A program made the translations under genes and the position numbers. Under the pieces are notes generated by a model, which ran no database searches, was not told the origin of the DNA, and was given only the letters and a program-made list of their open reading frames with translations. A stretch of DNA of 64,000 nt from Candidatus Nomurabacteria bacterium (GTDB lineage: Bacteria; Patescibacteriota; Minisyncoccia; Phycocordibacterales; UBA9973): NCBI GenBank assembly GCA_943354905.1, contig CALRDL010000001.1, positions 29,520 to 93,519 on the forward strand, read 5' to 3'. Shown here piece after piece: positions 31,772 through 55,162 of this stretch; position 1 is the stretch's first letter, and each line of letters begins with the position of its first letter.

Positions 31772-32134
31772 TTACTCATTTGCCATTCTTGATTTTACGG
31801 TTTTCTGTATTTTTCCTATTATTTTTAGTATTTCTTCGCAGTCATTAAAAACAGGAGAAAGTTCTTCTTGAGTCATGTATTTCGCTTCTCTTAATAGAGA
31901 AAGCCAATATTTTGTTTCTCGAGCTTCTTTGTAGGCTATGGATAATTTTGAGATGAAGTCTTTTTTCGATTGACCACCTAGTGCTTCTTCTATGTTTGCA
32001 CCGATTGATGTTCCACTTCTTAAAAGCTGTTTAGATAAAATAAATTCTTTTTTTATTCCAATTAAATATTTATATAATTCAATAATTCTTACTGCAAATT
32101 TATAGCTTTTTTGTTGTATTATGTTTTCTTTCAA
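31772..32134 (-). CDS. Four-helix-bundle protein (23S rRNA intervening-sequence protein family)
   Basis: QLLRSGTSIGANIEEA...AYKEARETKYWLSLL. Apparent TTG start lying within the heptad repeat. Confidence 0.55.
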   Translation of the reverse strand: MKENIIQQKSYKFAVRIIELYKYLIGIKKEFILSKQLLRSGTSIGANIEEALGGQSKKDFISKLSIAYKEARETKYWLSLLREAKYMTQEELSPVFNDCEEILKIIGKIQKTVKSRMANE

Positions 32135-33211: not shown

Positions 33212-35806
33212 CTAATGATGCGCACCTCCGCCTCCGTGAGAAGTATCTTTTTTGACTTCTGTTGCGCTAGATAGATCTACATTAATTTTAACACCCTTTA
33301 AGGACTCAGTAATCAAACTACCAATATCTTTTAAAGCATTTCCTTCACCTTTTCCATAGTTTACATTTAGTTGTTTAAATCCAGCACGCAAACCTATCGC
33401 AAGCCCTGCAGTCATCATTGTAGCAACTTTAGCCAATGTTTTGCTATTTGTTTTAGCTACCAGTTCCGCAATATTTCGTATATCGTAATTTCCACCTGTT
33501 GAAGCTGCAGTTACTCTTTCTCTTATACCTACCTTTTCTTTTGCTTCGTTTGCTATGTGACCAAACCTATTTTTAGCTATTACTTCAGACAATTGTCTTA
33601 ATCTTTCATTCCATTTATCGTTTAATGTTTCTAAAACTATAGATTCTCCTTGTTTAGTCAAGTCAAGAGTTATAGGGTCTACCATACCTGGCATAGCCCT
33701 TACACTTGTTTCAACAGCTGTACGTTTATTTGTTCTAAACTGGCTCTCAGTTTCCATTGGTATTCCTGTTCTTGGGTCAATCAGTACCCTACCTTTTTCA
33801 TCAGAACCTCTCTTTACATCTTTTTCTATTTGAGGACGATTTTCTTTAGCAAAGGTTTCTAGCATTTTACTATCTTGCATACCACTGAGTCTATCATTGC
33901 TTACTCCTTCTGCTCCTACTTTTTTCTTTAGTTCATCCCACTCAGTTGTAGCATGAGCAGTTTCCTCTCTTTTTAATTGAGCGGCATTTATTCTTCCACC
34001 TATTCGGTCTTTTAAATTGGTAGGAGCAGTAATTGTTGATGTATAAGTTTCTAATTTTGGTTTAGCGCCTCGTCCAGCTCTTGGAGTACTCTTCCAGCTA
34101 TTCAAGTCTTTGCTGAAGTTTCCAGATGCGGTACGATATTCTTTACCATATTTTAAGGCCTCAGTACTTCTTGAAAAACCAGCTACAGTAGATCCGATAC
34201 CTTTTCTCATGCCTGCTGCAGCTAAAAGACTAGCACCACCTAGGGCTAATCCTCCAACTACTCCAACTGCTTTCATCGCACCCATAGCCACTTCTGCAAA
34301 TTTTCCTCCTCCCTTTTTTGCGAAATCAGTTGCTTTCATTAGAAGTATTAAAATGAAAAGTGCTGGAATTATGATAAACAAAACTGTTTCCATAGTGGAA
34401 GCTTCGGCAGGATTTCGCATCAATCCACTAAATATATTTGCATTTATCAATCTAAATATAAAATATAAAAAGAACATAAATATCGGGGCCATAAAGGATA
34501 CCTCGATCAATCTTTTTAACCAAGAATCCCATCCTACATACTCTATTCCAGCTAATTTAGGCAAGGATAAAGACATAAACGCAAAAGGAGAAAATATTAT
34601 TAAAAGCCAGAGTTCTATGAGTCTTCCGAGGAAACTTATCCCAGCAATAAAAAATGCGTATGTGGCAAAAAGCATTATCGCTCCAGAGATTACGATCATA
34701 CCAAACAGTAATGCTATCGGTACTTCCTTACTCGGTATAAAATAATATACAAGACCCCCCACCGCACCAATCACCGCACCAGGTACCGCACCAATCCCAG
34801 CAAATGGTGAACCAGCAGCTGCACCAGCAGCTGCACCAGTCCCAGCACTAGCTAACACACCAGCTGTAGTTGCCTCAGCTATCGTATCTGTTCTTTTTTT
34901 TGCATTCTCAAAGAATTCGTTCGACAATAATTTCCCCGGATTAAAAGCATTTACCATACCACCCGATATATCTTTTTCTGTTCCGGTATTTGTGGCTGGT
35001 AAATATGCTTTCTTTACTCCATCTACGGTCGTCTCGGTGTTTATTTTATTATAGAAAATTAGGGCAAGAACATTTGAAGTGTCTATGACAATTTTCGTAA
35101 AGAACATTGAAAAGTTGATGAGTAATGCCATGATTATAACTTGAACCACCATCTTTTTTGCGTGGTCACTTATACCAAGTATAGTTTGAATACCTACATA
35201 TAATAAGATAAGAATAAAAAATATATTGGAAAGATCTCGGACTACGGCCCAAGCTGTGGGTATAAAAGTAGAACCACTAATCATTTTACCACTTAAGGTT
35301 AATGCCACAATAGCATTAAAAAACATCGCCGAATAAGTGAGCAAAAAAGATGGTAAGACATTCAGAAGAAAATAAGATATTTTGACTAAACATCCTGCAA
35401 TATTTGGAATAGGAAATATACAATCTGGTAGGTTGTTTCCTATACCAGTGTCGTCTGGGGGTTTGTCTGCCACTTTCTCACCCCCTCCTTCAATTGCATT
35501 TCCAATAGTACCAGGTGTCAAAAACCTTACAGTGGACGAACCAGGTATGTTTCCTGAGGTACATTCACCTCGCTTTCTTTGATCTTCCATGGGGTCTCCC
35601 CTGCTATTGGTCCAAGCACATCTTCCCATTTGATTAGGATCTGCTGGTGCTGGTGTCTGTGCCTGTGTTTTAGAAAAATACCCAACCCCCCCAGCTAAAA
35701 CCAGAATCAAGAGTAGATATGGAATTATCCTAGTAGTAGAAAATAGCCACATTTTTTTGGATGGTATTTTCACTACGGGGATTGTTTTTCTAAAATTTGA
35801 ATTCAT
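33212..35806 (-). CDS. VirB6/TrbL-like polytopic membrane protein of the type IV secretion system
   Basis: 864 aa. Signal anchor, at least eight predicted transmembrane helices, a Gly/Ala-rich segment and a long charged C-terminal domain. Assigned by architecture and context, not by a motif. Confidence 0.5.
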   Translation of the reverse strand: MNSNFRKTIPVVKIPSKKMWLFSTTRIIPYLLLILVLAGGVGYFSKTQAQTPAPADPNQMGRCAWTNSRGDPMEDQRKRGECTSGNIPGSSTVRFLTPGTIGNAIEGGGEKVADKPPDDTGIGNNLPDCIFPIPNIAGCLVKISYFLLNVLPSFLLTYSAMFFNAIVALTLSGKMISGSTFIPTAWAVVRDLSNIFFILILLYVGIQTILGISDHAKKMVVQVIIMALLINFSMFFTKIVIDTSNVLALIFYNKINTETTVDGVKKAYLPATNTGTEKDISGGMVNAFNPGKLLSNEFFENAKKRTDTIAEATTAGVLASAGTGAAAGAAAGSPFAGIGAVPGAVIGAVGGLVYYFIPSKEVPIALLFGMIVISGAIMLFATYAFFIAGISFLGRLIELWLLIIFSPFAFMSLSLPKLAGIEYVGWDSWLKRLIEVSFMAPIFMFFLYFIFRLINANIFSGLMRNPAEASTMETVLFIIIPALFILILLMKATDFAKKGGGKFAEVAMGAMKAVGVVGGLALGGASLLAAAGMRKGIGSTVAGFSRSTEALKYGKEYRTASGNFSKDLNSWKSTPRAGRGAKPKLETYTSTITAPTNLKDRIGGRINAAQLKREETAHATTEWDELKKKVGAEGVSNDRLSGMQDSKMLETFAKENRPQIEKDVKRGSDEKGRVLIDPRTGIPMETESQFRTNKRTAVETSVRAMPGMVDPITLDLTKQGESIVLETLNDKWNERLRQLSEVIAKNRFGHIANEAKEKVGIRERVTAASTGGNYDIRNIAELVAKTNSKTLAKVATMMTAGLAIGLRAGFKQLNVNYGKGEGNALKDIGSLITESLKGVKINVDLSSATEVKKDTSHGGGGAHH

Positions 35807-35839
35807 TATGTTTTTTTAACTTGACATTTCTTTTCCATT

Positions 35840-35885
35840 TGTTAGTATGTATATATTCAGACGAAAAGGGATCCGAACGGCTAAC
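35840..35885 (-). terminator. Hairpin plus T-tract downstream of the NYN gene
   Basis: On the minus strand: aagggctccttaggtagttagccgttcggatccctttt. Confidence 0.4.
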
Positions 35886-35888
35886 TAC

Positions 35889-36425
35889 CTAAGGAGCCCT
35901 TTTCTTTTTTAGCTCGATCTTTTCTTTTATATGATTGTTTTCTAAATAATCAAAATATTCGGATCCTAATTTTTGATATAAAGAAGAAGCAAATTTTCTA
36001 TCAGGAAATAATATTTTTTCAAATTTATTTTCTTCAATCAAAAAATCCACCAACATTTTATAATCTCCATCACCTGAAACCAAAATAATCTTTCCAAAAT
36101 CCTCTTTTTTATACAAACGCTTCATTGCAGAAAAAATAATATCAGAATCAACATTTCCCTTTTTTAGTCCAACCATAGCTTCACTATGTTGTTTGAATAC
36201 TATAATAAAACCAGCTTTTTGTATTTTTTCATATAAATCTTGGTATTTTTTATCTGTATATCCGAGATGGTAGTATGCTCTATCAACATTATACTTTTTT
36301 TCTAAATAAATTCTAAAACGACCCAGTTCAATTTTCCACGGATCAATATCTTTTTTTGCTGTATTCATATACAGATTCTGTCCATCTACAAAGGCAATAT
36401 TTTTATTTTCTTTTTCAATCATCAT
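35889..36425 (-). CDS. NYN-domain (LabA/PIN-like) ribonuclease family protein
   Basis: IAFVDGQNLY...DVDSDIIFSAM...ILVSGDGDYKMLV, the acidic residues typical of NYN domains. Confidence 0.6.
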   Translation of the reverse strand: MMIEKENKNIAFVDGQNLYMNTAKKDIDPWKIELGRFRIYLEKKYNVDRAYYHLGYTDKKYQDLYEKIQKAGFIIVFKQHSEAMVGLKKGNVDSDIIFSAMKRLYKKEDFGKIILVSGDGDYKMLVDFLIEENKFEKILFPDRKFASSLYQKLGSEYFDYLENNHIKEKIELKKKRAP

Positions 36426-36429
36426 AAGA

Positions 36430-36572
36430 TATTATATCACAACCTCATCCCAAAAATCCCAGCCAAAACCAGAATCAAGAGTAGATATGGGATTATCCTA
36501 GTAGTAGAAAATGACCACATTTTTTTTATTGATGTTTTCACTACGGGACTAGTTTTTCTAAAATTATTTTGC
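36430..36572 (-). repeat. Copy 2 of the VirB6-like 5' leader module (45-codon pseudo-N-terminus plus upstream region)
   Basis: Encodes MQNNFRKTSPVVKTSIKKMWSFSTTRIIPYLLLILVLAGIFGMRL, to be compared with the VirB6-like start MNSNFRKTIPVVKIPSKKMWLFSTTRIIPYLLLILVLAGG. Confidence 0.7.
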
Positions 36573-36665
36573 ATTTTATCTTTTTTACCTCATTTTTTGA
36601 ATACTTATTTTATTTTAACATTATATTGACAAAAAATCTTCTTAATATATACTTTATTAGTCATT

Positions 36666-36695
36666 AGAAAACGCCGGCCTGTACGGCGTTTTCCT
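36666..36695 (-). terminator. Rho-independent terminator-like hairpin
   Basis: aaacgccggcctgtacggcgtttt followed by a T-tract. Confidence 0.5.
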
Positions 36696-36699
36696 TTTT

Positions 36700-37305
36700 C
36701 TAGACATCACTCTTGATTTGCATCTTCCAGTCATTTATATCAATAAAAAATACTTGATTTCTTTTTTCTGCTACTAAATTTCGCAACTTTAAAGAAAGTC
36801 TCGAAGTAAAGTATCTAGGAGCAGTTCTTATTTTCTTGGCACTTGAAATTATATAAACTTTTACACCTTTCTCGACTACATTGCGAGCCAGATATTCAAA
36901 ATCTCCATCGCCAGTAAAAAACAAATACCCCACATTTTTTTCTATTTGATTTATTACATCAACAGCAAATTCTACATCACAATTTGATTTCCACTTTACT
37001 CCCCTACTTACTTTATGAGTTATTCCTGTGTTGCAATTAGGGCATAAAATTTTAATAATCTGATCTTGATTTTTGTAAATAAAATATGGTTTTGCGTGTA
37101 CGGTATATCCTAACTTGGACAATTCTTCGTATTCTGAAGCTTTAACATTATCACCATTTTGAATACCAGAATAAAAAAATATCTTTTCACAGTTCCATTT
37201 TTCTCTTAAATATTTAAACATTTTTTTCCAATCAATCACAAAACCAAGAAGCTGATTAGTAGTGCTTTCTGTGTTCTGTACATCAATAAATGCGTATCGT
37301 TTCAT
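36700..37305 (-). CDS. NYN-domain protein with an inserted zinc ribbon
   Basis: YAFIDVQN...CPNCNTG...WKSNCDVEFAVDVI...FFTGDGDFEYL. Confidence 0.55.
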   Translation of the reverse strand: MKRYAFIDVQNTESTTNQLLGFVIDWKKMFKYLREKWNCEKIFFYSGIQNGDNVKASEYEELSKLGYTVHAKPYFIYKNQDQIIKILCPNCNTGITHKVSRGVKWKSNCDVEFAVDVINQIEKNVGYLFFTGDGDFEYLARNVVEKGVKVYIISSAKKIRTAPRYFTSRLSLKLRNLVAEKRNQVFFIDINDWKMQIKSDV

Positions 37306-37344
37306 AATTTTAATTTTATATCTATACGTTCTCCCTTTATATAA

Positions 37345-37500
37345 ATCCCCCAGCTAAAACTAGAAATAAGAGTAGATATGGGATTATTCTAGTAGAAGAA
37401 AATAACCATATTTTTTTTATTGGTGTTTTCACTACGGGGATTGTTTTGCTAAAATTTGAATTCATTTATTTTCTTCGTTTTATTATAGCATTAGTTATAT
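37345..37500 (-). repeat. Copy 3 of the VirB6-like leader module with a consensus -10 box
   Basis: Encodes MNSNFSKTIPVVKTPIKKIWLFSSTRIIPYLLLFLVLAGGFI. Preceded on the minus strand by gctataataaaacgaagaaaataaATG. Confidence 0.7.
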
Positions 37501-37527
37501 GAATTTAGCTGTGTATTTTATTTTTGT

Positions 37528-37556
37528 TTGACATTGTTTTTAATTTCTACTATACT
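37528..37556 (+). promoter_or_regulatory. Consensus sigma70-type promoter: TTGACA, 17-nt spacer, TATACT
   Basis: ttgaca at 37528-37533, then a 17-nt spacer, then tatact at 37551-37556. Confidence 0.5.
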
Positions 37557-37562
37557 ATGCGT

Positions 37563-37647
37563 AGGTGTTTGTAGGGTTCGCCCTCTTACGGCACTAAGCT
37601 GTTAACAAACACTCACAAAGAACCCACCTTTTTGGTGGATTTTTTGT
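37563..37647 (+). ncRNA. Candidate ~85-nt small RNA with its own promoter and an intrinsic terminator
   Basis: An internal stem (gtgtttgt...acaaacac), then the terminator cccacc-tttt-ggtgg followed by ATTTTTTG. Lies in the 3' flank of ORF 37650-38126. Confidence 0.35.
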
Positions 37648-37649
37648 TT

Positions 37650-38126
37650 CTAATCTTCTTCCGGGTTGCCATCATGAAATATTCTAGTCATTGTTTCTCT
37701 ATTCATTCCCCAAAATGGAATAATACTCCAGAAAATTCTTTTACCATCTTCTATTTGTTTTATAATAATTTTAACCCTATTTCTTTTAATTATCGCTATA
37801 AATTCATAGTACGTGACATTTTTTAGGATTTTGTCCAGCCTACTATGAACTTTTATGTGTTCAAATTTTTTCGTTTCCCATATTCCTTGTAAGCTAGATG
37901 ATATTTTTATGACTTCGGGTGCTAAATTTATGAGTTTGAAACGCATATATTGATCTTGTTCCAATCGTGATTTTCCTCGATATTTATATTTTAAATGTTC
38001 AAGCCCTTGAGCATTAAATGCTATTTTTTCCTTAAAATATGGACAATAAACTTCCGTAATGGATTTATAAAAGGATTCTCCATTTATTTTAATTTTTTCA
38101 AATTCTTCATTACTAAATTTTAGCAT
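37650..38126 (-). CDS. Hypothetical protein (158 aa) preceded by a truncated leader copy
   Basis: No family recognised. Confidence 0.35.
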   Translation of the reverse strand: MLKFSNEEFEKIKINGESFYKSITEVYCPYFKEKIAFNAQGLEHLKYKYRGKSRLEQDQYMRFKLINLAPEVIKISSSLQGIWETKKFEHIKVHSRLDKILKNVTYYEFIAIIKRNRVKIIIKQIEDGKRIFWSIIPFWGMNRETMTRIFHDGNPEED

Positions 38127-38215
38127 ATTTTTTTTATTGGTATTTTCATTACGAGACTAGTTTTTCTAAATTCTAAGCTCATTTATTTTCTTCGTTTTAT
38201 TATAGCATTAGTTTT
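38127..38215 (-). repeat. Copy 4 (truncated) of the VirB6-like leader module
   Basis: Encodes MSLEFRKTSLVMKIPIKK. Shares the promoter gctataataaaacgaagaaaataaATG. Confidence 0.6.
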
Positions 38216-38218
38216 TAA

Positions 38219-39376
38219 CTAACTTCCAAGAAAGTCTGTGTAATTCTCTACTGTAATAACCTTAAAATTGATCTGGAGATTCTTGTTGGTCTCGATAAAT
38301 ACTTTCGGAGTTTTTTTCTTCTGCATATTATTAAGAGTAAATTCATAAACATCAGCATTTTGATTCCACTTTTCAATATAATCAATCTCTTTACCCTCGA
38401 TATTTCTCCAGAAGAACGTTTGATACAATTTTCCATTGTACGCGTTACTTTTAAGTTTCTCTATGATGGCAAAGTTTTCAAACAAGTTGCCGAGATCTCT
38501 GCGCATTAAACCATTTTTATTAATGTTTGTTTCTGTAAAATCATTGATTATGGCATTACGAATACCGAGGTCGTAGAAATACAGCTTGTTCTTTTTACGT
38601 ATTTCGGTGCGGAGATTGTTGTTATAACTTTTCAGTCTAAATACAACAAATGATTGTTCTAATAGATAAATATATCTTTGTATTGTCTTACTACTCGTTC
38701 CCAATTCTTTACTTATTTTATTTATACTAATTTCATTACCTATTTGATAAGCGAGTGTGCGGAGTAAATTTAGCAATATTTCTGGTTTTTTTAGATTTTC
38801 AAATTTAAGAATATCTTTGAGTAGAAATGATTCAGCTAGATTTTTAACTTTGGCTATTTTCTCTTCGATGGTGCCCTGCAGGATGACTTCTGGATAGCTA
38901 CCAAAACGGAGTATGTAATCGAGATGTGTTGTGGGGTTGAAGTATTCAGAATTCCTGATTTCATAGTCGGTGAGTGGGTACATATTAAGTAAAATATTTC
39001 TACCCATTAACGGCTCTCCGATTTGACCAGCAAGTTCGAAAGAGGATGACCCTGTTACTACAATTTTGAGGTTTGGGTAGGCATCGATAATGATTTTGAG
39101 ATTTATTCCGATATTTTTTATATTCTGTGCTTCATCGATAAACAAGAGGTCGAGGTCCTCGACATGTTCTTTTAGTTTTTCTAGTCTTTGAGATGAAAAT
39201 ATTTCTTGGGTAGTTATACTATCACCAGCATAGACTCTATACTTGTCTTTGAATTGCTCAAGGAAACTATTTATTATAGTTGTTTTACCTACCTGTCGTG
39301 GACCATAGATGATCAAAACCTTACCGTTTTGGACAAAGCTTCCGATGTCTATTTGTCTTTTAACTAAATTCTTCAC
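38219..39376 (-). CDS. AAA-family ATPase (COG1373-like, ATPase domain plus DUF4143-type C-terminus)
   Basis: Walker A GPRQVGKTT, Walker B LLFIDEAQ, and a C-terminal winged-helix-like region. Confidence 0.65.
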   Translation of the reverse strand: MKNLVKRQIDIGSFVQNGKVLIIYGPRQVGKTTIINSFLEQFKDKYRVYAGDSITTQEIFSSQRLEKLKEHVEDLDLLFIDEAQNIKNIGINLKIIIDAYPNLKIVVTGSSSFELAGQIGEPLMGRNILLNMYPLTDYEIRNSEYFNPTTHLDYILRFGSYPEVILQGTIEEKIAKVKNLAESFLLKDILKFENLKKPEILLNLLRTLAYQIGNEISINKISKELGTSSKTIQRYIYLLEQSFVVFRLKSYNNNLRTEIRKKNKLYFYDLGIRNAIINDFTETNINKNGLMRRDLGNLFENFAIIEKLKSNAYNGKLYQTFFWRNIEGKEIDYIEKWNQNADVYEFTLNNMQKKKTPKVFIETNKNLQINFKVITVENYTDFLGS

Positions 39377-39495: not shown

Positions 39496-42400
39496 CTAAT
39501 TTTCATTATTTGTTGTTGGTTCTGTCTGACTTTGTATCCACGTACTACCATTTACTGAATCACAATCTTCCTTTGATACTTCCGATTCGGTGAATTTTTG
39601 TTCAGGAGTGACTGGATTAGAAAGAGTACAAGTACCTAATCTTATTCCAATGTCAGTATCGTTTACGATGATTGGTGCTTCGATGACTGGTGTTAATCCA
39701 GGGAGGTCTTTTTTGTAGTCCACTATCTGTGTATTATAAATAAGATCACAACTTAGTTTCATAGTAGCAGAATGTCCAAATACCCCAAGGGATCCACGCC
39801 ATTTCAATACATCTTTGGCATTTACATAAGGAACATCAGGGTGTGTTACAATTCCATCTGGTTTGTTGCCCAATGCTCTACCTATAAGTATTCCTGGAAT
39901 TATGCCTATTCCTCCGGTGATGGCACCTAAATATCCACCCAGTATTGCACCAAAAGCACCACTACTTCCGTCGTTTTCATGTGTAAAAGATTTATGGTTA
40001 TATCCACCTTTGATCGGTGCATCACAGAATATGTCTTGTTCTGTGCCAGATGTGGTAGGAAATTTATCTGCAATACCAGAAGCAGTAAGGTTGCTATTTG
40101 GTCCACCCTTTTCTTCCCATCCTTTAGCTTTTCTTTCTTGTCTACATTTTGTGACCAAGGCTATAGTTTTTTCGTATTTATTTTTTGCCATACTCAATTC
40201 GTTTAGAGTATTTTCTATAGTTGAACTATTTGAGATAGATATCTTGATCGGGTTGTACTTTTTTCGCAGGTCTACCAGATATTTTTCTTCGTTTGAACCG
40301 ACTTCTGGTTGATCTGTCAATTTATCCAAGTCGGCTTTTATTGACAGCAATCTAGCCAGTGCCTGATTTTTTATTCTCTTACTATCAATAATCTCCTTTG
40401 ATTGTTGATAGAGTGTGTCGATTTCGTCTATGGCGTCCATATAAATTTGGGAATCTCCTAGGGACATTAGCATTTTATTATCGATCCAATCCTTGAAAGA
40501 TTTTACGGCAAATTCTAATTCATTATAGACGAGTCGAGCAGCAGCAGCTTTTTCTCCATTTTGCTCGTTCATTCTTCCCTGTAACTTGCTACTGTTTCTA
40601 TCCATTTCTTCTGTTAATCTATCCTTCCATCCCATGTTTGGTCCTGGCATACACATATCGAGTTCACGTATCTCTGGCCAAGTTTTACTGATCATTTGAA
40701 TGATGCCGGGATCGTTTATAGCGCGATTGTCTATAAGTGCGATTTCTCTTTGGGTGTTTACAATATCTCCGGGGATGTATTTTTTACCATTTCCATCGGT
40801 CCATTCTCCTGGTGGGTAGATTTCATCATTTGCATCTTTTAAGTTTCTACTCACATTGTCACAATCAGCTTTACTGACTTGCACTGTTTTTTCTCGAGTG
40901 CTACATGAACCAAGTCCAATAGTGTTTCTGGTGTCTCCTACTTCAATTACTATTTGTCCTGCAACTGAAACATTTCTTTCTGAACCATCTTCATCTTTTT
41001 CTATTATGCTCCCTACACGTACCCTCTGTGTATATCCATCCAGTTGTTTTTTGAAAACATCCAAAGAGATTTCTTCATCTGGACCAGTGCTCCAAGGCTT
41101 ATTTACGTCATCGTCTGCGACTCCGAGTCTCTGTCCTTCATATTCAAAGTCTTCTTCTACAGGTTTCCGATTTGTCTTAGTAGCCAGAGCATTTAATCCT
41201 TCACCCAAGAATTTATTAAATAAAGCATCAAAAATAGCGGACAATCCAGTAATGCTGTCACCTACTACACTACCAAGTACGGTTTGATCCGCTCTTGCTC
41301 CCATAGCTTTTGCTATCTGATTTGCTATTACAGAACCCGGAGTGGTAGCGACGAGTCCACCTGGACAATTGTTGTTTACATCCCACATTATTTTTTCTAC
41401 TGCACGAGCGTTATTAAATCTTATGGTTTCTGCACGATATCCTGCTTCTCTTTCTGGATCTCTAGTTCCACCACCAGCAAATGTATCATCATCAAAATTA
41501 TACCCTCTAGGGAGAGTTGTTCTATTTCTTTGTGAAGGTGTTGTAGTGGGAGGTAAAGGTAGTCCTGAAGGTAATGTTAAAGGTGGTAATGGAGGTATAA
41601 TATTAGGAGCAGGAGGGCGAGGAGCGACTGCAAGAAGTAAGCCATCAAGAGCAGATGCAGATCCAGTACCTCGTGGTGGTGGTGGAAATGGTGATGGTGG
41701 TAGGTTTACGGGTGGTAATCCTCTCGGTGGGGGTGTTGTTAGATCTGGTGGGGGTGGTAACTCAGGGACTGCAACACTGGAATAATTTTCATTAAACTTT
41801 GTTTTAGGTTGGAAACTTGGCTTCTGAAATTCATTTTTACCATTATTATAATTAGGATTTGAAGGACAAGTTTGCGGAGACAAAAATCCCATACCTTGAT
41901 CTAGGACTTTTTTTACTTTATTTGCACTAGTTTCGACCACACCTTCTAGTTTTCTGGCGAGCCGTTCGGTGGCTAGCATCTGATAACCGATATAATTATT
42001 TTGGGGATACATAGTATTGGTCAAAAATCCATTCCATCCCCCGACGTTAAAATCAGTCCTGTATCTTTGCAATAGTGCTGGGTCGTTTATGACTTTACTG
42101 AGGGTGTATTGTGCGTTGTCTTCAAATTTTTGTTTATAAGATCCTATAATATTTAATGCAAAACCTTTTCCAAAAGGAAAACGATTTGAGTCGTAGCCTG
42201 TCATTGTAATGAAATTCTTGATCTCATATTTTCCTACATCTCGAAAGAAAGATGTTGGATTTTCCAAGAAAAGTGGCGCACCGTGAAATCCAGCGTTGAT
42301 CCAGTTTATTGTACTTTTTGTCATTTCAGCCATGAGCCTTTTATTTACAGTTATAACCATTTGTTTCAATATTGCTATACTTGTCTCTTTAATTTTAAAG

Positions 42401-42600
42401 CCCAGACTTGTTGCATTTACTTTTGCATTTACCTTCCCCGCCACCGCCCCCACCACCGCCGCCTTCGTTGCACCAGGATCACTTACAACTGCTTGAGCAT
42501 GGGATTTTTCAGGTTTTAAAAATAAAAAACTCGGCATTAGTATTGCAATAATTAAAAAAGATGAGATGAGTTTTATAATTTTATTATTTTTAGTTTGCAT
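39496..42600 (-). CDS. Large secreted protein (1034 aa) with a Pro-rich low-complexity segment and a C-terminal Gly-zipper transmembrane region
   Basis: Signal peptide. PPPP..LPP runs at about 41500-41800. C-terminal GAILGGYLGAITGGIGIIPGILIG. Confidence 0.45.
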   Translation of the reverse strand: MQTKNNKIIKLISSFLIIAILMPSFLFLKPEKSHAQAVVSDPGATKAAVVGAVAGKVNAKVNATSLGFKIKETSIAILKQMVITVNKRLMAEMTKSTINWINAGFHGAPLFLENPTSFFRDVGKYEIKNFITMTGYDSNRFPFGKGFALNIIGSYKQKFEDNAQYTLSKVINDPALLQRYRTDFNVGGWNGFLTNTMYPQNNYIGYQMLATERLARKLEGVVETSANKVKKVLDQGMGFLSPQTCPSNPNYNNGKNEFQKPSFQPKTKFNENYSSVAVPELPPPPDLTTPPPRGLPPVNLPPSPFPPPPRGTGSASALDGLLLAVAPRPPAPNIIPPLPPLTLPSGLPLPPTTTPSQRNRTTLPRGYNFDDDTFAGGGTRDPEREAGYRAETIRFNNARAVEKIMWDVNNNCPGGLVATTPGSVIANQIAKAMGARADQTVLGSVVGDSITGLSAIFDALFNKFLGEGLNALATKTNRKPVEEDFEYEGQRLGVADDDVNKPWSTGPDEEISLDVFKKQLDGYTQRVRVGSIIEKDEDGSERNVSVAGQIVIEVGDTRNTIGLGSCSTREKTVQVSKADCDNVSRNLKDANDEIYPPGEWTDGNGKKYIPGDIVNTQREIALIDNRAINDPGIIQMISKTWPEIRELDMCMPGPNMGWKDRLTEEMDRNSSKLQGRMNEQNGEKAAAARLVYNELEFAVKSFKDWIDNKMLMSLGDSQIYMDAIDEIDTLYQQSKEIIDSKRIKNQALARLLSIKADLDKLTDQPEVGSNEEKYLVDLRKKYNPIKISISNSSTIENTLNELSMAKNKYEKTIALVTKCRQERKAKGWEEKGGPNSNLTASGIADKFPTTSGTEQDIFCDAPIKGGYNHKSFTHENDGSSGAFGAILGGYLGAITGGIGIIPGILIGRALGNKPDGIVTHPDVPYVNAKDVLKWRGSLGVFGHSATMKLSCDLIYNTQIVDYKKDLPGLTPVIEAPIIVNDTDIGIRLGTCTLSNPVTPEQKFTESEVSKEDCDSVNGSTWIQSQTEPTTNNEN

Positions 42601-43640: not shown

Positions 43641-46181
43641 ATGAAAAAAATAATATTTAGATACTTTTTTTTAGTTATATTTGCCCTAGTTCCGGTTTTA
43701 TCTGCTAACGCTGTGTTTTCTACTTGCACTTATACAGGTACTTGTAATTTACCTCAGAGTTCAGGTTGTCCGAGTGGTCAATATTGGAATTCCTCACTAA
43801 ACAGTTGTGCCATTAATCCAGTTGCTGTTTCTAGCAATACTCCCCCTGCTACCCCTACTCCCCCTGCTACTCCTCCTACCCCTACCCCAGCAAGCGATGT
43901 TTGTACTGGTGAAATTCGTACAGATATGGTTGCCGCTCAAAAATGTGCTGATTTAGCGATTACTAAAGGAAAAGCATTGGGATATGAAATAGATTGCAAG
44001 GTTATACAGTCTGGTTTGGCAGGATTTAGAGATCCAACATCAGGTCAAGGTTATGTTTTAAGTACTGATTGTACAGTCAATGGATCACCAGGTCACGGCG
44101 CGTATCTGCTTGCAGGATTTAAAGCAGCTCCAGCTTGTACTCCTGCACAAATGCAACGCATCGTTGCTTCAGGTTCTTCTAATACTGCTACAACTGAGGG
44201 GTGTAGCAATGCGATCGTTTCAAATGTTAATCCAGGATGGAATATCTTAGCAACAGAGCTTAGATATAGAGGTGCGGTTACTGATCCAAATCCTACACGT
44301 ACTCCCGCTACCATCCCTAACTGCACGACTAATTTTAGTGTGATTACAGGGAGTCCTTGCAGGGGAAATGTTGGAAGTGCAGGTAATACTACAGGTGGTA
44401 CGAGCGGAGACAGGATACTAGGTTGTGCCAGTACTTCTGGGGTCAGCACTATCACAGGTCAATCTTGTTCTGGGACTGTCTATTCTCTCGATAAAGACAA
44501 TGATGGTATTCCAGACGAGATAGATGACGAAGTGGATTTCATAGACAATGGCATAACAGCTCGCCCTCCTATATTTAGAACCACGAGAACAAATCCCCAA
44601 TGTTATGTTTTTACTCAGACATTACAAAATAACAGTACGGGTATTGAAGTATTTGCACTCACCTATGCTCTCAAACAAGAGGGATTTTTGTCCCAAACAA
44701 GTAGAGTGTTTGACACGACTGTAATGGTAGCTGTCAAAAGATTACAAGAAGCAAATAAAACTGAAATATTGAGTTTTCTCGGTCTTACCCAAGGAACAGG
44801 TGTAGTAGCAGAAAAGACTCGTGCATATTTGAATTCAAAATGTATCGTGCCTATGTCAGTGGTAACTGCAGAACAACAAGGTGGTTCCACTTCATGTGTA
44901 GCTCCTAAATCTGCTATTAAAAATGGCAAATATCAGTACACATTTACTAAAAATGTTGGAGGAAATTGGGTAGTTACACTCAATAACCCAGCATACAGTA
45001 CACCAAGTGATCCATATTATGTTCCAGCAAATATTTCTTTCACTGCGACCAATGCTCTTGATTTAAACAGACAAAATCAAGGTAAATTTAATTATCTACA
45101 AACATTACCAGGTACAGCTGTCGGAAACACTGAGTACCAAAATATCTTCGGCTCCTTCAATAATGCATATTATGACTGGGGCACGATGACAAAAGATGTG
45201 GTATGTACTACAACAGTAGCAATCGTAGTATTACCTGTTATTCCTCTCTCTCGATATGTAAAAGTTTCTATCGCAGATTGGGATACACTTCCTCTTGGAA
45301 TTCGTGAGATCACAGTATTAGGAGCAAATAACACTAAAGTTAGCCCTATATCTGTGAATATAACAAATATGGATGAATCGGGGTACCAAACCCCCTCCAA
45401 TCTAACCGACCGCAATGAAAATACTTACTGGAGGGCTATAAAGCATGTCTCCACCTGTGCTGTAAATACAGACTCGACAGCAGGTCGAGGTGCTGATACG
45501 AGCCCAGGTCGTGCCTGTGAAGTGTTAGGAGATTTACAAGTTATCACTCTCGATCTTGGTCAACTTGTAGCATTGGATCGAATAGCAGTAATGAATTACG
45601 GTCTCACTAATACACGAGTATTTGTGATTGAAGTAAGTAAAGATGGAAATTCATATACTCAGATTGCCGAAGTGCGTGCGCAAGTAAATGCACCAATTGC
45701 AGACAAAGGAATGGTCATTGGATTTATGAAGGACGCTGGCACTGTAGGTCCTCTTCCTTCCCTCCGCACTCTCACATCCATAAACGGTACTGCAGGAATT
45801 ATTGGTAATACCGTCACACTTACAGGTACAGGATTTACTCCTACTGGAAATAAAATTAAGTTTGGTAATTTAGGAAGTGAAAATAATCCTCAATATTCTG
45901 TACGGTCTACTGATGGAAAAACCTTGACATTTGCTGTTCCGGTTAGCAATTACGAGTCTTGTTGGAGACCTGTGATTGGAGCTGCTTGCGCGTTACCTAT
46001 CATACCTACTCAAACAGGTATTTACGATGTGTCCATAACAAATATTAATGGAACCAGTAATACACTACCGTTTGATGTTATTCCTGAGTGTCGTTATGGT
46101 GGTGCACAACGATTTGGTGAGAGTGAACTGATTTGCGGAAGGAGTGATAGAGCAATAGATGATAGATTCAGGCCCCAATAG
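43641..46181 (+). CDS. Secreted surface protein with a Pro/Thr-rich linker, a peptidoglycan-binding-like domain, an F5/8-type-C (discoidin)-like domain and an IPT/TIG-like domain
   Basis: Signal peptide. ALTYALKQEGFLSQ...VKRLQEAN resembles PG-binding domain 1. NENTYWRA...ITLDLGQLVALDRIAV resembles a discoidin domain. Confidence 0.45.
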   Translation: MKKIIFRYFFLVIFALVPVLSANAVFSTCTYTGTCNLPQSSGCPSGQYWNSSLNSCAINPVAVSSNTPPATPTPPATPPTPTPASDVCTGEIRTDMVAAQKCADLAITKGKALGYEIDCKVIQSGLAGFRDPTSGQGYVLSTDCTVNGSPGHGAYLLAGFKAAPACTPAQMQRIVASGSSNTATTEGCSNAIVSNVNPGWNILATELRYRGAVTDPNPTRTPATIPNCTTNFSVITGSPCRGNVGSAGNTTGGTSGDRILGCASTSGVSTITGQSCSGTVYSLDKDNDGIPDEIDDEVDFIDNGITARPPIFRTTRTNPQCYVFTQTLQNNSTGIEVFALTYALKQEGFLSQTSRVFDTTVMVAVKRLQEANKTEILSFLGLTQGTGVVAEKTRAYLNSKCIVPMSVVTAEQQGGSTSCVAPKSAIKNGKYQYTFTKNVGGNWVVTLNNPAYSTPSDPYYVPANISFTATNALDLNRQNQGKFNYLQTLPGTAVGNTEYQNIFGSFNNAYYDWGTMTKDVVCTTTVAIVVLPVIPLSRYVKVSIADWDTLPLGIREITVLGANNTKVSPISVNITNMDESGYQTPSNLTDRNENTYWRAIKHVSTCAVNTDSTAGRGADTSPGRACEVLGDLQVITLDLGQLVALDRIAVMNYGLTNTRVFVIEVSKDGNSYTQIAEVRAQVNAPIADKGMVIGFMKDAGTVGPLPSLRTLTSINGTAGIIGNTVTLTGTGFTPTGNKIKFGNLGSENNPQYSVRSTDGKTLTFAVPVSNYESCWRPVIGAACALPIIPTQTGIYDVSITNINGTSNTLPFDVIPECRYGGAQRFGESELICGRSDRAIDDRFRPQ

Positions 46182-49496: not shown

Positions 49497-49910
49497 CTAT
49501 TCTAAACTAAAATCAATTAATTTTTGTTTTACCAAATCATCTGGAACTTCAAAACCCGGCATATATTCCACCTTTTCTGTGTAGTTGATATCATCAAAGT
49601 AGGCTAATTGATTACGAAAAATTTTCGCATTAAATTCCCCAGCAAAAAGCTCTTCAGCTTTTTGAGATATTTCTTTCACAGTAAAATGATCTTTTAGTAT
49701 AAAATATAAATCAACATAATCTTTCCATTTATTGCGTCTGCTCAAGGCAAATGCCTTCATCGCAGCTAGTGTCAAAAGAGTAGGGAGCTTTAAATAATAT
49801 CCAAATTTTTCTGGATAAGAAATCTCGTAATTAAATTCTTTCAATAAAGATAATAGATTTGATTGTTCTTCAGTTAAAATTTCTTTATGTGATGCTTGAA
49901 TATTTATCAA
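49497..49910 (-). CDS. Hypothetical protein, possibly the C-terminal part of a nucleotidyltransferase-like (AbiEii-like) protein
   Basis: SRRNKWKDYVDLYFIL motif. Overlaps the upstream ORF by 26 nt, suggesting a split gene. Confidence 0.3.
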   Translation of the reverse strand: MINIQASHKEILTEEQSNLLSLLKEFNYEISYPEKFGYYLKLPTLLTLAAMKAFALSRRNKWKDYVDLYFILKDHFTVKEISQKAEELFAGEFNAKIFRNQLAYFDDINYTEKVEYMPGFEVPDDLVKQKLIDFSLE

Positions 49911-53861: not shown

Positions 53862-54005
53862 ATTTTTTTATTTAAGCTAATAAATTATTGTTTATATTAT
53901 ACACCAATTAAATATGTTTTAGATATTTGTAATACCATTATACCATAAAGATGTGCATTTTGTCAAGTATTTATTTTTAGATTTTTTAAATCAAAACGCA
54001 AAAAG

Positions 54006-54050
54006 GCCGTACGCTGGAGTTGGGAATACCAACGGCGTACGGCCTTTCGA
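54006..54050. terminator. GC-rich hairpin at the left edge of the high-GC island
   Basis: aggccgtacgctggagttgggaataccaacggcgtacggcct. Confidence 0.45.
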
Positions 54051-54106
54051 TTGATTTGGTTGATGTGTGTGCCGGCCCACGATTGTAGGTCGGCAATAAA
54101 GAACAA

Positions 54107-55141
54107 TTAAAAGGCTTCGATTTTCACCTGAGCCCCGGCTTTTTTTAGCCGGTTTTCAAGGTACTTGAGCCCCTTTTCCATCAGCGCTGGTCGTGAGACC
54201 GGGAGCGGATGGAGGTGGACAGTGAGTCCTTTCAAGTTGAGTGCGCCGATGTCGGCGATCTGGTCTAACTTTGACCAGTTCGCCTCCTCAAGAAGCTCTG
54301 GGTTTTTGTAAACCGAGGCTTCAGGAAGATTTTCGAGCCCATCTGTAAAAATGTGGAGCTTAGGACGTGAGTCCTTGTTCTCCATCATTTCTTTTAGGAT
54401 GGGCATGAGGCCACGCAGGACGGAGCTCTTGGGCTTTGCTTTCCCTTCCACTAGCCAGTCTGTGCTGGCTTTTACTTCGGCTTCCATACCAAGATTTGGA
54501 CGTTGCCGTCCCCCTTGGTAAGGGTCCTCGGAAATGTGATATAGGTTAAGCGCGATTTTGTTTTTGCCGTCAGCTCCGAGCTGTACGGCTCGGGTCTCGT
54601 CAACAATCTGACGAACCCGTTTGGCTAAGTCGTCACTGACACCCTCGGTGGTGTCGAGCGCGACTCCAAACGCCCGCTTGATCGCGACCGGGCCGGTGAA
54701 GGCCTCGATCGCTTTTGCCAATTCGGGCTGGGAGCCGGTGAGCTCTTTCCTCCGATTCGGCCGGGTCGTTTGCTCGAACTTTAGCCAGCCTTTCAGCTGG
54801 AAAATGTTCGAGGATAGGATCTTGTCACCGTCCTTTGTGACGAAGGTCAGTTTCAGTCCATACCCACCCGGCTCTTCCGGCGTGGGGCGTTCGGCGCCGT
54901 AGCGTTTGAGGCTTTTGGCGCTGAACTTCTTTGATTCTTGCAAGAAGATGTCCGTTAAGCGGACACCTTCCGTGGAAACGAGGGTGCTGGCGTCGATCGC
55001 CAACCCCCCGTCCGCTTCGACTTCCCGTTCGAAAACGAGGAAGTCTTCTTTGGGGGTGTACTTCTCCCCCCAAAGGAACATCGTGAGTCCGATCGCCGCA
55101 GCCAGTATGGCTACGGACGACAGGACCAGTTTTTTGTTCAT
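54107..55141 (-). CDS. GC-rich hypothetical exported protein, possibly vWA-like
   Basis: N-terminal anchor LVLSSVAILAAAIGLTMFLW. PKLHIFTDGLEN resembles a vWA segment. Assignment weak. Confidence 0.45.
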   Translation of the reverse strand: MNKKLVLSSVAILAAAIGLTMFLWGEKYTPKEDFLVFEREVEADGGLAIDASTLVSTEGVRLTDIFLQESKKFSAKSLKRYGAERPTPEEPGGYGLKLTFVTKDGDKILSSNIFQLKGWLKFEQTTRPNRRKELTGSQPELAKAIEAFTGPVAIKRAFGVALDTTEGVSDDLAKRVRQIVDETRAVQLGADGKNKIALNLYHISEDPYQGGRQRPNLGMEAEVKASTDWLVEGKAKPKSSVLRGLMPILKEMMENKDSRPKLHIFTDGLENLPEASVYKNPELLEEANWSKLDQIADIGALNLKGLTVHLHPLPVSRPALMEKGLKYLENRLKKAGAQVKIEAF

Positions 55142-55162
55142 TGCTTCTGTTCCTTTCCGCCC

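Follow-up and report, generated by a model that had tools for sequence, protein, structure and literature searches.

The window, namely the 64,000-nt stretch of Candidatus Nomurabacteria DNA analysed here, contains two conserved genes of a type IV secretion system (T4SS) cluster, coding for 1034-aa and 864-aa proteins, that enclose an ATPase gene and three compact cassettes. Four copies of the 864-aa gene's initial ~60-150 nt are present, with the cassettes situated between successive copies, and every gene of the block, from NYN-178 to the ATPase, is on the minus strand. In order from the upstream side, the features are:

39496-42600, minus strand: conserved 1034-aa T4SS-cluster gene, upstream boundary of the hotspot
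39411-39383: the ATPase's own promoter-like site
38219-39376, minus strand: inserted gene for a 385-aa ATPase with AAA_14, HTH and DUF4143 regions (PADLOC candidate PDC-S01, E = 8.5e-121)
38124-38213, minus strand: leader copy D, truncated, combining a promoter-like stretch (extended -10) with the initial ~60 nt of the 864-aa gene
37650-38126, minus strand: cassette 1 gene, 158-aa protein, distant stand-alone LPD3-like domain
37528-37650, plus strand: cassette 1 RNA, convergent promoter TTGACA-17-TATACT (37528-37556), then a ~89-nt Y-shaped RNA with terminator (37562-37650)
37337-37495, minus strand: leader copy C, 42-codon truncated copy of the 864-aa gene start, 79% identical to A over 37340-37488
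36700-37305, minus strand: cassette 2 gene, NYN-201, NYN nuclease with a Cys-rich insert (Pfam NYN PF01936, 9.9e-15)
36626-36706, plus strand: cassette 2 RNA, convergent promoter TTGACA-16-TATACT (36626-36653), then a ~48-nt hairpin RNA (36659-36706)
36437-36597, minus strand: leader copy B, 45-codon truncated copy of the 864-aa gene start, 81% identical to A over 36449-36597
35889-36425, minus strand: cassette 3 gene, NYN-178, LabA-like NYN nuclease (Pfam NYN PF01936, 1.4e-15)
35821-35912, plus strand: cassette 3 RNA, convergent promoter TTGACA-16-(TGT)TAGTAT (35821-35848), then a ~56-nt RNA (35855-35912)
35681-35829, minus strand: leader copy A, the genuine 5' end of the 864-aa gene
33212-35829, minus strand: intact T4SS-cluster gene for the 864-aa polytopic membrane protein, including copy A, downstream boundary of the hotspot

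The junction of these two conserved T4SS-operon genes is an insertion hotspot. Homologues of the 1034-aa gene lie directly upstream of that of the 864-aa gene, which occupies the VirB6 position of the cluster, in 57 of 70 related species, the flanking genes being 0-153 nt apart, with an empty junction, in 57 of the 70 resolved species loci. In 13 loci the junction is filled by 0.5-1.9 kb of varying small cargo (solo PemK/MazF, NYN, HEPN+MNT, RelB+YafQ, HicA). NYN genes are found there in only a handful of relatives, with NYN-178-type copies in L071, L078, L085, L086 and L097 and a NYN-201-type copy, 82% identical to that of the window, in L189. No allele of the same species with an empty junction was found, L165 and L166 showing the same arrangement. 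This distribution bears out the view that the NYN proteins are not housekeeping factors kept at a conserved position in all relatives, and the PemK, HEPN+MNT, RelB+YafQ and HicA cargo, together with the ATPase match to a defence-candidate model, supports the toxin- or defence-like cargo of the original prediction, the genes behaving as conflict or selfish elements. By contrast, its placement of the block beside a secretion island, on which it would ride, has to be abandoned: the block is within the T4SS operon, which is no mobile island but a chromosomal cluster that adjoins dnaA, is conserved beside oriC across Paceibacteria, and whose essentiality has been reported for one Saccharibacteria strain. 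An AbiEii fragment is also located nearby, at 49497-49910.

Copied leader modules had been anticipated, although in two copies rather than four, and shuffled sequence gave no match of this type. The segment copied codes for the N-terminal tail of the 864-aa protein together with its first membrane helix, and the copies are separate short ORFs that end before each cassette gene without fusion to the NYN proteins. In copy D, which forms an ORF of 18 codons, the stop and the ATG of the 158-aa gene overlap (ATGCTAA), and an identical 33-nt promoter-like stretch is shared with copy C, while the ACTAGTCC variant of copy B is also found in a functional homologue in L025. Partial 5' coding copies of the 864-aa gene homologue are likewise situated ahead of cassettes for PemK (L009, L080) and for NYN (L071, L085). 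Since the copies are ~20% divergent, they are not fresh target duplications, and their candidate origins are a staggered cut, a template switch or the import of donor flanks assisted by homology.

All cassettes share one design, a promoter-less gene facing a convergent near-consensus sigma-70 promoter for a predicted short structured antisense RNA at the gene 3' end. The TTGACA-N16/17-TAnnnT promoter and the hairpin are present in 3/3 window cassettes, and 18 of 21 solo genes (NYN, PemK/MazF, LPD3-like) have a convergent promoter behind them, versus 0 of 6 genes of two-protein pairs (HEPN+MNT, RelB+YafQ), a contrast that may be regarded, at the sequence level, as an internal control for an antidote role of the RNA. 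The solo PemK toxins at the hotspot leave no room for a protein antitoxin. Promoter-like matches in the window region amount to 38, versus 29 expected in shuffles, so single matches mean little; nonetheless, the -35 and -10 boxes are conserved over 61 loci, the spacer and flanks not, which indicates transcription and not merely a DNA site.

The 158-aa protein of cassette 1 gave no match to Pfam, NCBIfam or PADLOC, consistent with its earlier description as unknown, but it is no orphan: 688 close homologues and 876 clusters at 50% identity were found, with H44, R54 and Q80 invariant. The structure prediction proposed for it produced an AF2 model of pLDDT 92.7 that showed no fold match in the PDB, while its best viral fold matches (BFVD) are LPD3 proteins (probability 0.90-0.94). 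In agreement with this, PF18798 is matched weakly by 19 of 73 diverse relatives, the window protein itself being below any threshold. The likeness is to LPD3, a domain that occurs in polyvalent proteins of phages and plasmids and is one of the LPD domains listed as of elusive function (Iyer et al. 2017, PMC5512222), although here the protein stands alone with its own small RNA instead of being a domain of a giant protein. The small RNA predicted at this position was confirmed at the sequence level, as one of three convergent RNAs: its fold is stable (MFE -33 kcal/mol, z = -4.67), it contains 31 conserved pairs, 4 of them compensatory, with G-U pairs valid on the plus strand only, and it is conserved with compensatory changes in four other Patescibacteria lineages. 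No Rfam family was matched. It stops at the stop codon of the 158-aa gene, so that the overlap concerns the 3' UTR only.

Both window NYN proteins exceed the Pfam gathering score and have the catalytic motifs, and since they are only 22% identical to each other they represent two distinct lineages, as had been proposed. NYN-201 has 435 homologues and weakly matches a PADLOC NYN model; its RNA folds with z = -3.70, and hairpin and promoter are kept in L189, L190 and L191, with a compensatory G-C to A-T change. NYN-178, with 80 related loci and no match among PADLOC models, retains the D..N, D.D and GDGD motifs and aligns with the LabA-like structure 2QIP (VPA0982) at E = 3.3e-07, acidic motifs included. 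To our knowledge, toxicity is not an established property of NYN or LabA-type proteins, and we know of no RNA partner, mobility or toxin role described for the LabA-like NYN family. Our literature search returned no paper linking NYN domains with Patescibacteria.

The cassette 3 RNA, single copy within the window, overlaps the stop codon of NYN-178, and its alignment across 61 loci supports 12 pairs, 5 of them compensatory. Over 49 NYN-178 loci the RNA block and the -35 hexamer are both 84% identical, in comparison with 51% for third codon positions, 44% for the promoter spacer and 29% for the host flank, the RNA block being as conserved as second codon positions. The NYN-178 ORF ends in differing reading frames inside this block, and the constraint therefore acts on nucleic acid, not on protein. 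Considering that a cis-antisense RNA needs no conservation of its primary sequence, yet this one is nearly invariant, it would seem to be recognised by a protein, or to act at the DNA level, rather than simply to pair.

The ATPase conforms to the predicted COG1373/DUF4143 type, with Pfam AAA_14 and DUF4143 and a full-length match to PDC-S01, whose AAA_14, HTH and DUF4143 architecture it shares, although PDC-S01 is a candidate defence gene only. Among the block genes, the PADLOC check was positive for the ATPase, the others giving a weak match or none. Neither a convergent promoter nor an RNA was found at this gene, which also has no leader duplicate of its own, and it is absent from the same junction in relatives.

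The cassettes are mobile. Members of all three families are scattered over Patescibacteria as lone, highly conserved genes, and between genomes the cassette proteins resemble each other far more than their neighbours do, NYN-178 reaching 70-75% identity versus 36-53% for flanking genes, and NYN-201 82% versus 40-54%. They appear alone in unrelated contexts, for instance beside pth, between purine- and sugar-metabolism genes, or in the gap separating mreC from a 560-aa gene; they are mostly single within housekeeping operons rather than in islands, and most loci are far from T4SS genes. In NYN-178 copies with unrelated flanks, the DNA homology is confined to a stretch that starts some 20 nt ahead of the ATG and ends 70-95 nt past the stop, defining a ~640-nt unit. 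Direct repeats of host sequence, 24-89 nt long and 84-100% identical, occur in 15 of 76 NYN-178 loci, many abutting the unit, while 61 of the 76 have no detectable flanking repeat. Thus, the single multi-gene module originally envisaged resolves into an ATPase and three independent cassettes of one gene each, every one with its RNA and found alone elsewhere.

The explanation that best accommodates these observations, to which we assign a probability of roughly 0.55, is that mobile toxin and RNA-antitoxin cassettes, not T4SS effectors, have piled up at an insertion hotspot. The hotspot would have gathered in this genome the DUF4143 ATPase and three independent promoter-less cassettes of ~0.6-0.8 kb each, inserted one after another into the opening 60-150 nt of the 864-aa gene, each insertion becoming flanked by a duplicate of that 5' stretch. 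The downstream leader copy would keep the essential 864-aa gene intact, and the upstream one would provide promoter and translation-start signals for the cassette gene. The cassette protein would be an RNase-type nuclease with toxic activity, and the antisense RNA, presumably abundant, its putative antidote, which may pair with the mRNA 3' end (type I-like), bind the protein (type III-like), or both.

A possible, if unlikely, alternative that overlaps with the former is an anti-phage defence islet, in which the ATPase, the two NYNs and the LPD3-like protein gather at a permissive site and are silenced by the antisense RNAs until infection, host benefit being placed before selfish addiction. 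The PDC-S01 match, the weak PADLOC similarity of NYN-201, the AbiEii fragment, the toxin-antitoxin genes, HEPN/MNT among them, that relatives have at the junction, and a DUF4143 ATPase two genes away from the 158-aa gene in Tagabacteria loci are in line with it; the candidate status of PDC-S01, the lack of PADLOC matches for NYN-178 and the 158-aa protein, and the mostly single occurrence of cassettes inside housekeeping operons are not. It appears improbable that the cassettes are autonomous transposable elements, with the PIN-like, structure-specific NYN nuclease as mobilising enzyme, the 3' hairpin as cis-acting end and the direct repeats as target-site duplications. Their discrete ~640-nt boundaries, the abutting host-derived repeats and a near-invariant 45-nt block at one end, beyond what antisense pairing requires, would fit, but the same layout and leader duplications accompany an unrelated PemK/MazF RNase and the LPD3-like protein, implausible as transposases, the other end has no conserved sequence, the repeats measure anything between 24 and ~150 nt, and the conserved -35/-10 boxes indicate transcription.

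It is equally hard to credit that these are ordinary accessory RNA-processing genes, that is, non-toxic NYN RNases with bidirectional terminators, incidental promoter-like sites in AT-rich DNA and leaders left as neutral tandem-duplication scars. LabA/NYN proteins do have regulatory roles in other bacteria, and the small excess of promoter-like matches over shuffles agrees with incidental sites; against this, promoter boxes are conserved where spacer and flanks are not, the RNAs show compensatory changes, occurrence is patchy with identity far above that of neighbouring genes, and, with three mutually unrelated cargo genes lying between the repeats, this is no simple tandem duplication. Finally, despite the location inside the T4SS operon and the copying of an N-terminal tail and membrane helix, the effector-like cargo of the original prediction, here taken as genes secreted by or regulating the T4SS with the leader as targeting or co-regulation module, is very improbable and largely refuted by distribution, the leaders being unfused, truncated duplicates of the neighbour gene 5' end, the same genes being far from T4SS genes in most loci, and the junction being empty in most relatives.

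The proposed toxin and RNA-antitoxin cassettes resemble type I systems such as Bacillus subtilis TxpA/RatA and BsrG/SR4 in their 3'-overlapping cis RNA from a much stronger convergent promoter, without protein antitoxin, and in being compact, horizontally mobile loci, sometimes in tandem repeats. Among known type I toxins small membrane peptides predominate, whereas the putative toxins here are 158-201-aa NYN, LPD3-like or PemK-type proteins, and the RNA sequence is conserved (84%) beyond the needs of simple antisense pairing. Nuclease toxins with RNA antitoxins are represented by E. coli SymE/SymR and RalR/RalA (RalR/RalA, PMC4041452), and, among the papers found, PMC12390103 describes type I systems as reported mainly from Proteobacteria, Firmicutes and Tenericutes. 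In type III systems (ToxIN, CptIN, TenpIN), with a role in abortive infection, an endoribonuclease of Kid/MazF-like fold is neutralised by a protein-binding structured RNA, a concept close to the solo PemK/MazF and RNA cassettes at the same hotspot; however, that RNA consists of tandem repeats placed upstream on the same strand, while the RNA here is a single unit, downstream and convergent. Integron gene cassettes, too, are units of ~0.6 kb with one ORF, no promoter and an imperfect 3' hairpin, stacked head-to-tail at a single site behind upstream host expression signals, but the units here have no shared attC core, are flanked by long target-gene 5' duplicates and carry an inward-facing promoter, and the window ORFs scanned included no integrase.

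In all, the cassettes look like toxin and RNA-antidote modules of a kind so far undescribed for these nucleases. Such modules would persist through addiction and may abort phage infection, and they would spread between naturally DNA-importing Patescibacteria, their entry at the hotspot being probably aided by homology in the flanking leader.

All genes of the locus are encoded on the minus strand and follow one another as listed here.

39496-42600, minus strand: gene of 1034 aa, first in transcription order
38219-39376, minus strand: 385-aa ATPase with Pfam domains AAA_14 and DUF4143, second in transcription order
37650-38126, minus strand: ORF of 158 aa without a Pfam match, third in transcription order
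36700-37305, minus strand: NYN-201, Pfam NYN (PF01936), fourth in transcription order
35889-36425, minus strand: NYN-178, Pfam NYN (PF01936), fifth in transcription order
33212-35806, minus strand: polytopic membrane protein gene of 864 aa, last in transcription order

[quoted passage not shown] Both NYN proteins score well over the gathering cut-off of PF01936 (58.6 bits for NYN-178 and 55.7 bits for NYN-201, against 24.2) and share an identity of only 22%, in line with the original prediction that they are distinct. Alignment to the LabA-like structure 2QIP shows the acidic motifs vDGQN, NVDSD and SGDGD to be kept in NYN-178, and pairwise alignment of the two proteins places IDVQN, NCDVE and TGDGD in NYN-201; both putative nucleases retain the conserved acidic active-site motifs (D..N, a central D and GDGD). 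The Pfam domains likewise confirm the COG1373/DUF4143-type AAA ATPase, which also matches the PADLOC candidate PDC-S01 model PDLC04789 over residues 10-383 (E = 8.5e-121). NCBIfam provided no name for any cassette protein.

The window also contains dnaN, dnaA, yidC, an R3H-domain gene, a pilin-like gene, VirB4, PrgI, a 289-aa gene, ksgA and uvrD, and relatives have the same synteny in this T4SS/dnaA region. According to a survey (PMC12102498), the T4SS genes of Patescibacteria form a conserved cluster on the chromosome, close to the origin of replication, and in the only Saccharibacteria strain put to the test these genes, virB6 among them, proved essential for growth as an epibiont. The window belongs to a Paceibacteria/Nomurabacteria-type member of the Patescibacteria, and its 864-aa protein is ~45% identical to the best homologues. 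An exact look-up of this protein returned no match, and no VirB6 model matched it, so that it is designated here by its VirB6 position only. Other features of the region include a long stretch of low complexity, rich in proline and with PPPP/LPP repeats, encoded at 40400-41700 within the conserved 1034-aa gene, and an 846-aa gene on the opposite strand (43641-46181, plus strand) with a weak galactose-binding-like domain, which breaks the co-directional synteny of ksgA, a ~290-aa gene and the 1034-aa gene found in relatives.

The gap between the 1034-aa and 864-aa genes is an insertion hotspot inside a conserved operon. Among 80 species-representative loci, 70 of them resolvable, the flanking genes lie 0-153 nt apart in 57 of the 70, and the remaining 13 hold 0.5-1.9 kb of small genes. 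Solo PemK/MazF-like toxins occupy the junction in 7 loci, and NYN genes do so in two of the compared loci, L071 and L078, as well as in L044, where the upstream gene is off the contig; other cargo comprises HEPN+MNT (2 loci), RelB+YafQ, HicA, GIY-YIG, ORF6N and a 23S-rRNA-intervening-sequence (IVS) protein. Further occupied junctions were found in metagenomes, with genes of the NYN-178 type in L085, L086 and L097 and of the NYN-201 type in L189. Effector cargo linked to the T4SS, one of the functions originally proposed for these genes, would be expected to accompany it, and the junction is devoid of them in 57 of the 70 species; most members of the cassette families are, moreover, located away from T4SS genes. 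At the hotspot of L009 (1916-2764), a 282-aa chimera joins an ORF6N domain to the C-terminal two thirds of a NYN domain and keeps the convergent promoter, apparently one cassette inserted into another. The T4SS operon of the window carries a second small insertion, a 120-aa 23S-rRNA-IVS protein gene (31772-32134, minus strand; PF05635, E = 1e-29) that separates the 289-aa gene from PrgI, these two being adjacent in the three relatives inspected. The same family is also hotspot cargo in L073, and no convergent promoter follows the window gene.

The 5' end of the 864-aa gene is present four times in the window, with a single cargo gene between each successive pair of copies.

35681-35829, minus strand: leader A, the real start of the 864-aa gene
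36449-36597, minus strand: leader B, 81% identical to A, with an ORF of 45 codons
37340-37488, minus strand: leader C, 79% identical to A, with an ORF of 42 codons
38124-38213, minus strand: leader D, shortened to ~60 nt from the start of the coding sequence

The copied leader modules predicted to precede the NYN genes are therefore real, and one more lies before the 158-aa gene. Leaders C and D have in common an identical 33-nt extended -10 promoter-like stretch. The 18-codon remnant in D terminates in ATGCTAA, its stop overlapping the start of the 158-aa gene, an arrangement of the translational-coupling type. The hotspot of the window thus holds three independent single-gene cassettes plus the ATPase gene, and the long host duplications keep the downstream gene intact while putting host start signals before promoter-less cargo. 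Simple tandem duplication in situ was discarded on two grounds: the cargo genes show no relationship to one another, and the copies are mosaic, the variant ACTAGTC of leaders B and D being that of a functional allele in another species, the 864-aa homologue of locus L025. Coding fragments from the 5' end of the 864-aa homologue also precede PemK cassettes (L009, L080) and NYN cassettes (L071, L085).

Each of the three cassette families consists of a mobile and highly conserved gene that occurs by itself. NYN-178 has relatives at 80 metagenome loci (56-76% identical), most of them unrelated to T4SS genes, and where T4SS flanks are present the NYN-178-type protein is 70-75% identical against 36-53% for its neighbours. 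In copies with unrelated flanks, homologous DNA is confined to ~640 nt, beginning at about -20 relative to the ATG and ending at +70..+95 past the stop. Direct repeats of host sequence (24-89 nt, 84-100% identical) were found at 15 of 76 NYN-178 loci; they come from the 5' ends of genes or from terminator/promoter regions, and in many cases lie immediately next to the ~640-nt unit. For NYN-201, 435 homologues of ~200 aa were recovered; besides the hotspot of L189, the gene occurs next to pth in L191 and in the NYN array of L190 described below. The 158-aa gene had been taken for an orphan, a description that does not hold: its product has 688 close homologues (64-100% identical, almost invariant in length), from sources named as Nomura-, Taga-, Yonath-, Gracili- and Peregrinibacteria, and the family forms 876 clusters at 50% identity. 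Its members stand alone in various contexts, among them a position between mreC and a 560-aa gene and another flanked by genes of purine and sugar metabolism. In L155 (955-2700; also in L157) two divergent paralogues follow one another ~2.4 kb upstream of a NYN-178-type gene; their identity to the window protein is 32-45%, and each has its own convergent RNA. A second example of stacked cassettes is L190 (1-4400), where four NYN genes of two lineages and a SocA_Panacea gene form a tandem array in which a terminator/promoter segment recurs between the genes, in copies of 67 nt or less.

Regarding the way in which such units move, an integrative element of the attP/attB type was rejected because the repeats differ between loci and are host sequence. 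DNA transposons and insertion sequences differ in having target-site duplications of fixed length, the repeats here varying from 24 to ~150 nt, and neither transposase domains nor terminal inverted repeats were found in the cassettes. Integron cassettes come closer in design; nonetheless, the 3' hairpins of the three cassettes lack a common core, whereas attC sites share core motifs, and no tyrosine recombinase was detected among the ~45 window ORFs scanned. The ~20% divergence of the leaders, together with the occurrence of the B/D allele in another species, favours homology-assisted import of donor flanks at the hotspot. At new sites, replication or template switching is suggested by the near-identical repeats of other loci and by the right junction of the NYN-178-type insertion in L149 (2137-2290), where the host terminator hairpin occurs once inverted, with its loop flipped, and once direct, which looks like a fold-back or template-switch signature. 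No empty-site allele of the same species was found.

The window also encodes an IS200-like Y1 transposase-domain protein of 224 aa (8039-8713, minus strand), a fragment of an IS66-family DDE transposase (2045-2881, minus strand) and an AbiEii toxin fragment (49497-49910, minus strand). It is conceivable that a hairpin-recognising Y1 enzyme works in trans on the cassette hairpins as putative targets. At 54000-57000 the G+C content rises abruptly to 0.51-0.56 over a background of ~0.35; the ORFs of this stretch, possibly foreign DNA, have no Pfam or NCBIfam match (54107-55141, 55163-56773). A large share of the cassette-family members lie on contigs of 1-2 kb, and the ENA contig L165 ends within ~100 nt after its NYN-178 gene, where the next leader copy starts; in Patescibacteria, these repeats and cassettes are a probable cause of fragmentation in short-read assemblies.

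After each of the three cargo genes, a near-consensus sigma-70 promoter on the opposite strand faces the 3' end of the gene and is followed by a stable predicted hairpin RNA ending in a T-run.

37528-37556, plus strand: promoter of the RNA of the 158-aa gene, TTGACA-17-TATACT
36626-36653, plus strand: promoter of the NYN-201 RNA, TTGACA-16-TATACT
35821-35848, plus strand: promoter of the NYN-178 RNA, TTGACA-16-TAGTAT with TG before the -10 box

The strongly signalled small RNA of the original prediction is thus present, not as a single one, since every cargo gene has its own convergent promoter and hairpin. Predicted RNA starts lie near 37562 for the 158-aa gene, 36659 for NYN-201 and 35855 for NYN-178. 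Fold z-scores were -4.67 for the RNA of the 158-aa gene, -3.70 for that of NYN-201 and -2.70 for that of NYN-178. None of the three has an Rfam match: gathering thresholds returned tRNAs only, and permissive ones chance-level matches. These predicted convergent RNA genes are conserved. Alignment of the NYN-178 RNA module from 61 distinct loci shows conservation of the -35 box, of the -10 box with its TG extension and of a ~47-nt block, AGACGAAAAGGGRYCCRAACGGYTAAYTRCCTAAGGNNCCCTTTTC, but not of the promoter spacer or the host flanks. Over 49 loci, pairwise identity averages 84% for the RNA block, 84% for the -35 hexamer, 67% for the protein, 51% for third codon positions, 44% for the promoter spacer and 29% for the host flank. 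The NYN-178-type ORFs end within this block in different frames (..KKKRAP* in the window, ..KKEKGALGN* in L071), indicating that the constraint is not on the protein. RNAalifold gave 12 pairs for the NYN-178 RNA, 5 of them with compensatory changes. The RNA of the 158-aa gene folds as a Y-shaped domain plus terminator, with 31 pairs, 4 of which are compensatory. Read from the opposite strand, several of its G-U pairs would turn into A-C mismatches, which establishes that transcription runs convergently to the gene. L189, L190 and L191 likewise have the NYN-201 promoter and hairpin, with a compensatory change from G-C to A-T in L190. Scans of viral contigs with two RNA core motifs yielded five loci, none coding for a homologue of the window query proteins; four lack the surrounding module, and L187 has a hairpin-like remnant without a NYN gene.

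Solo genes and two-protein pairs provide an internal control. The solo PemK/MazF genes at the hotspot leave no space for a protein antitoxin and carry a convergent TTGACA-N17-TGCTATACT promoter with a UUCG-hairpin RNA. A peptide-coding function of this RNA was discarded, as the ORFs starting at its ATG have no consistent length and GGCUUCGGCC, which is conserved, is the UUCG hairpin. When the 170 nt downstream of 32 cargo genes were scanned for convergent TTGAC[AT]-N16-18-TAnnnT, the promoter was present after 18 of the 21 solo NYN, PemK and LPD3-like genes and after none of the 6 genes of two-protein pairs (HEPN+MNT twice, RelB+YafQ), nor was it detected after the ATPase, IVS-protein, HicA and GIY-YIG genes. 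The misses among solo genes are L167 and L181, with TTGATT at the aligned -35 position, and L177, whose TTGACT falls outside the scan pattern. That the RNA partner is present where a protein antitoxin is missing constitutes the strongest indirect argument for an antidote role.

The 158-aa protein was modelled by AF2 from a diverse alignment with high confidence (pLDDT 92.7, pTM 0.86), and residues H44, R54 and Q80 are invariant in its family. Identity as an IS200/IS605-type Y1 transposase was dropped for want of a PF01797 match, and Foldseek searches of the PDB with both AF2 models gave nothing below E = 0.1. The best viral fold matches are LPD3-domain proteins (probability 0.90-0.94, with TM of only 0.39-0.46). 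The window protein itself has no LPD3 (PF18798) HMM match; weak matches occur in 19 of 73 family members at E < 0.01 (best 1.7e-06), and the three relatives with listed scores reach 20.3-23.3 bits, below the 27-bit cut-off. We treat it as a distant stand-alone LPD3-like domain, possibly a putative RNase. The paper that defined the LPD domains (PMC5512222) counts LPD3 among those of elusive function, and notes it in polyvalent phage proteins that also have predicted RNase domains (PBECR).

Among known toxin-antitoxin designs, type II systems differ from the cassettes, which lack an adjacent co-transcribed protein antitoxin gene and contain, within their limits, no further ORF except truncated leader ORFs. 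In type III systems, a tandem-repeat RNA antitoxin lies upstream of the endoRNase toxin on the same strand, whereas the cassette RNA is single-copy, downstream and convergent; the invariance of its sequence nonetheless makes a type III-like recognition by the protein possible besides type I-like action. Closest in design, along with type III systems and integron cassettes, are type I loci whose antisense RNAs overlap at the 3' end and the nuclease-toxin type I pairs SymE/SymR and RalR/RalA. As in type I systems, each of the three cassettes is predicted to encode in cis an antisense RNA that overlaps the cargo mRNA and has a promoter and a terminator of its own, a predicted feature conserved over the 61 NYN-178 loci and in the other cassette families. 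Type I toxins are typically, not universally, small hydrophobic peptides, and the window proteins differ in being soluble-looking, of 158-201 aa and with NYN or LPD3-like folds.

We infer that the cassette proteins act as toxins and the RNAs as type I-like antidotes, and that the cassettes would persist through addiction, perhaps also providing abortive infection, as the toxin/immunity or defence-like module originally proposed might. A defence islet, a transposon driven by its NYN protein, ordinary RNases and T4SS effectors are less probable readings. Tentatively, with a probability of about one in three (0.35), they would represent an undescribed kind of promoter-less mobile cassette of Patescibacteria, of ~0.6 kb, which pairs a nuclease toxin (NYN, LPD3-like, solo MazF/PemK) with a conserved convergent small-RNA antitoxin and duplicates its target on insertion. 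Such a cassette would insert at a terminator/promoter junction or in a host gene within its first ~100 nt; the duplication of 24-150 nt of target would leave the host gene intact and lend its expression signals to the cassette. RNA-antidoted toxin modules are of a kind already known, and there is a substantial chance that the mode of mobility is new. In the literature searched, neither a description of this cassette design nor a paper linking NYN domains with Patescibacteria was found.

If this reading is true, RNA-antidoted toxins gain new families in the NYN and LPD3-like proteins, and the short list of RNA-controlled enzymatic toxins would be extended by two NYN lineages, solo MazF/PemK and a stand-alone LPD3-like domain. 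For LPD3 this offers a role open to testing and a model of high confidence in which three residues are invariant, and at least three unannotated conserved RNA families become candidates for Rfam. RNA-antitoxin systems would also be carried into the Candidate Phyla Radiation, for which, to our knowledge, almost nothing has been reported on small RNAs or addiction modules. The origin-adjacent T4SS operon is a recurrent landing site, which bears on annotation and assembly. Patescibacteria genomes contain few recognisable transposases; long variable duplication would be the mark of a new insertion mechanism, and these host duplications pose the question of how DNA enters such genomes.
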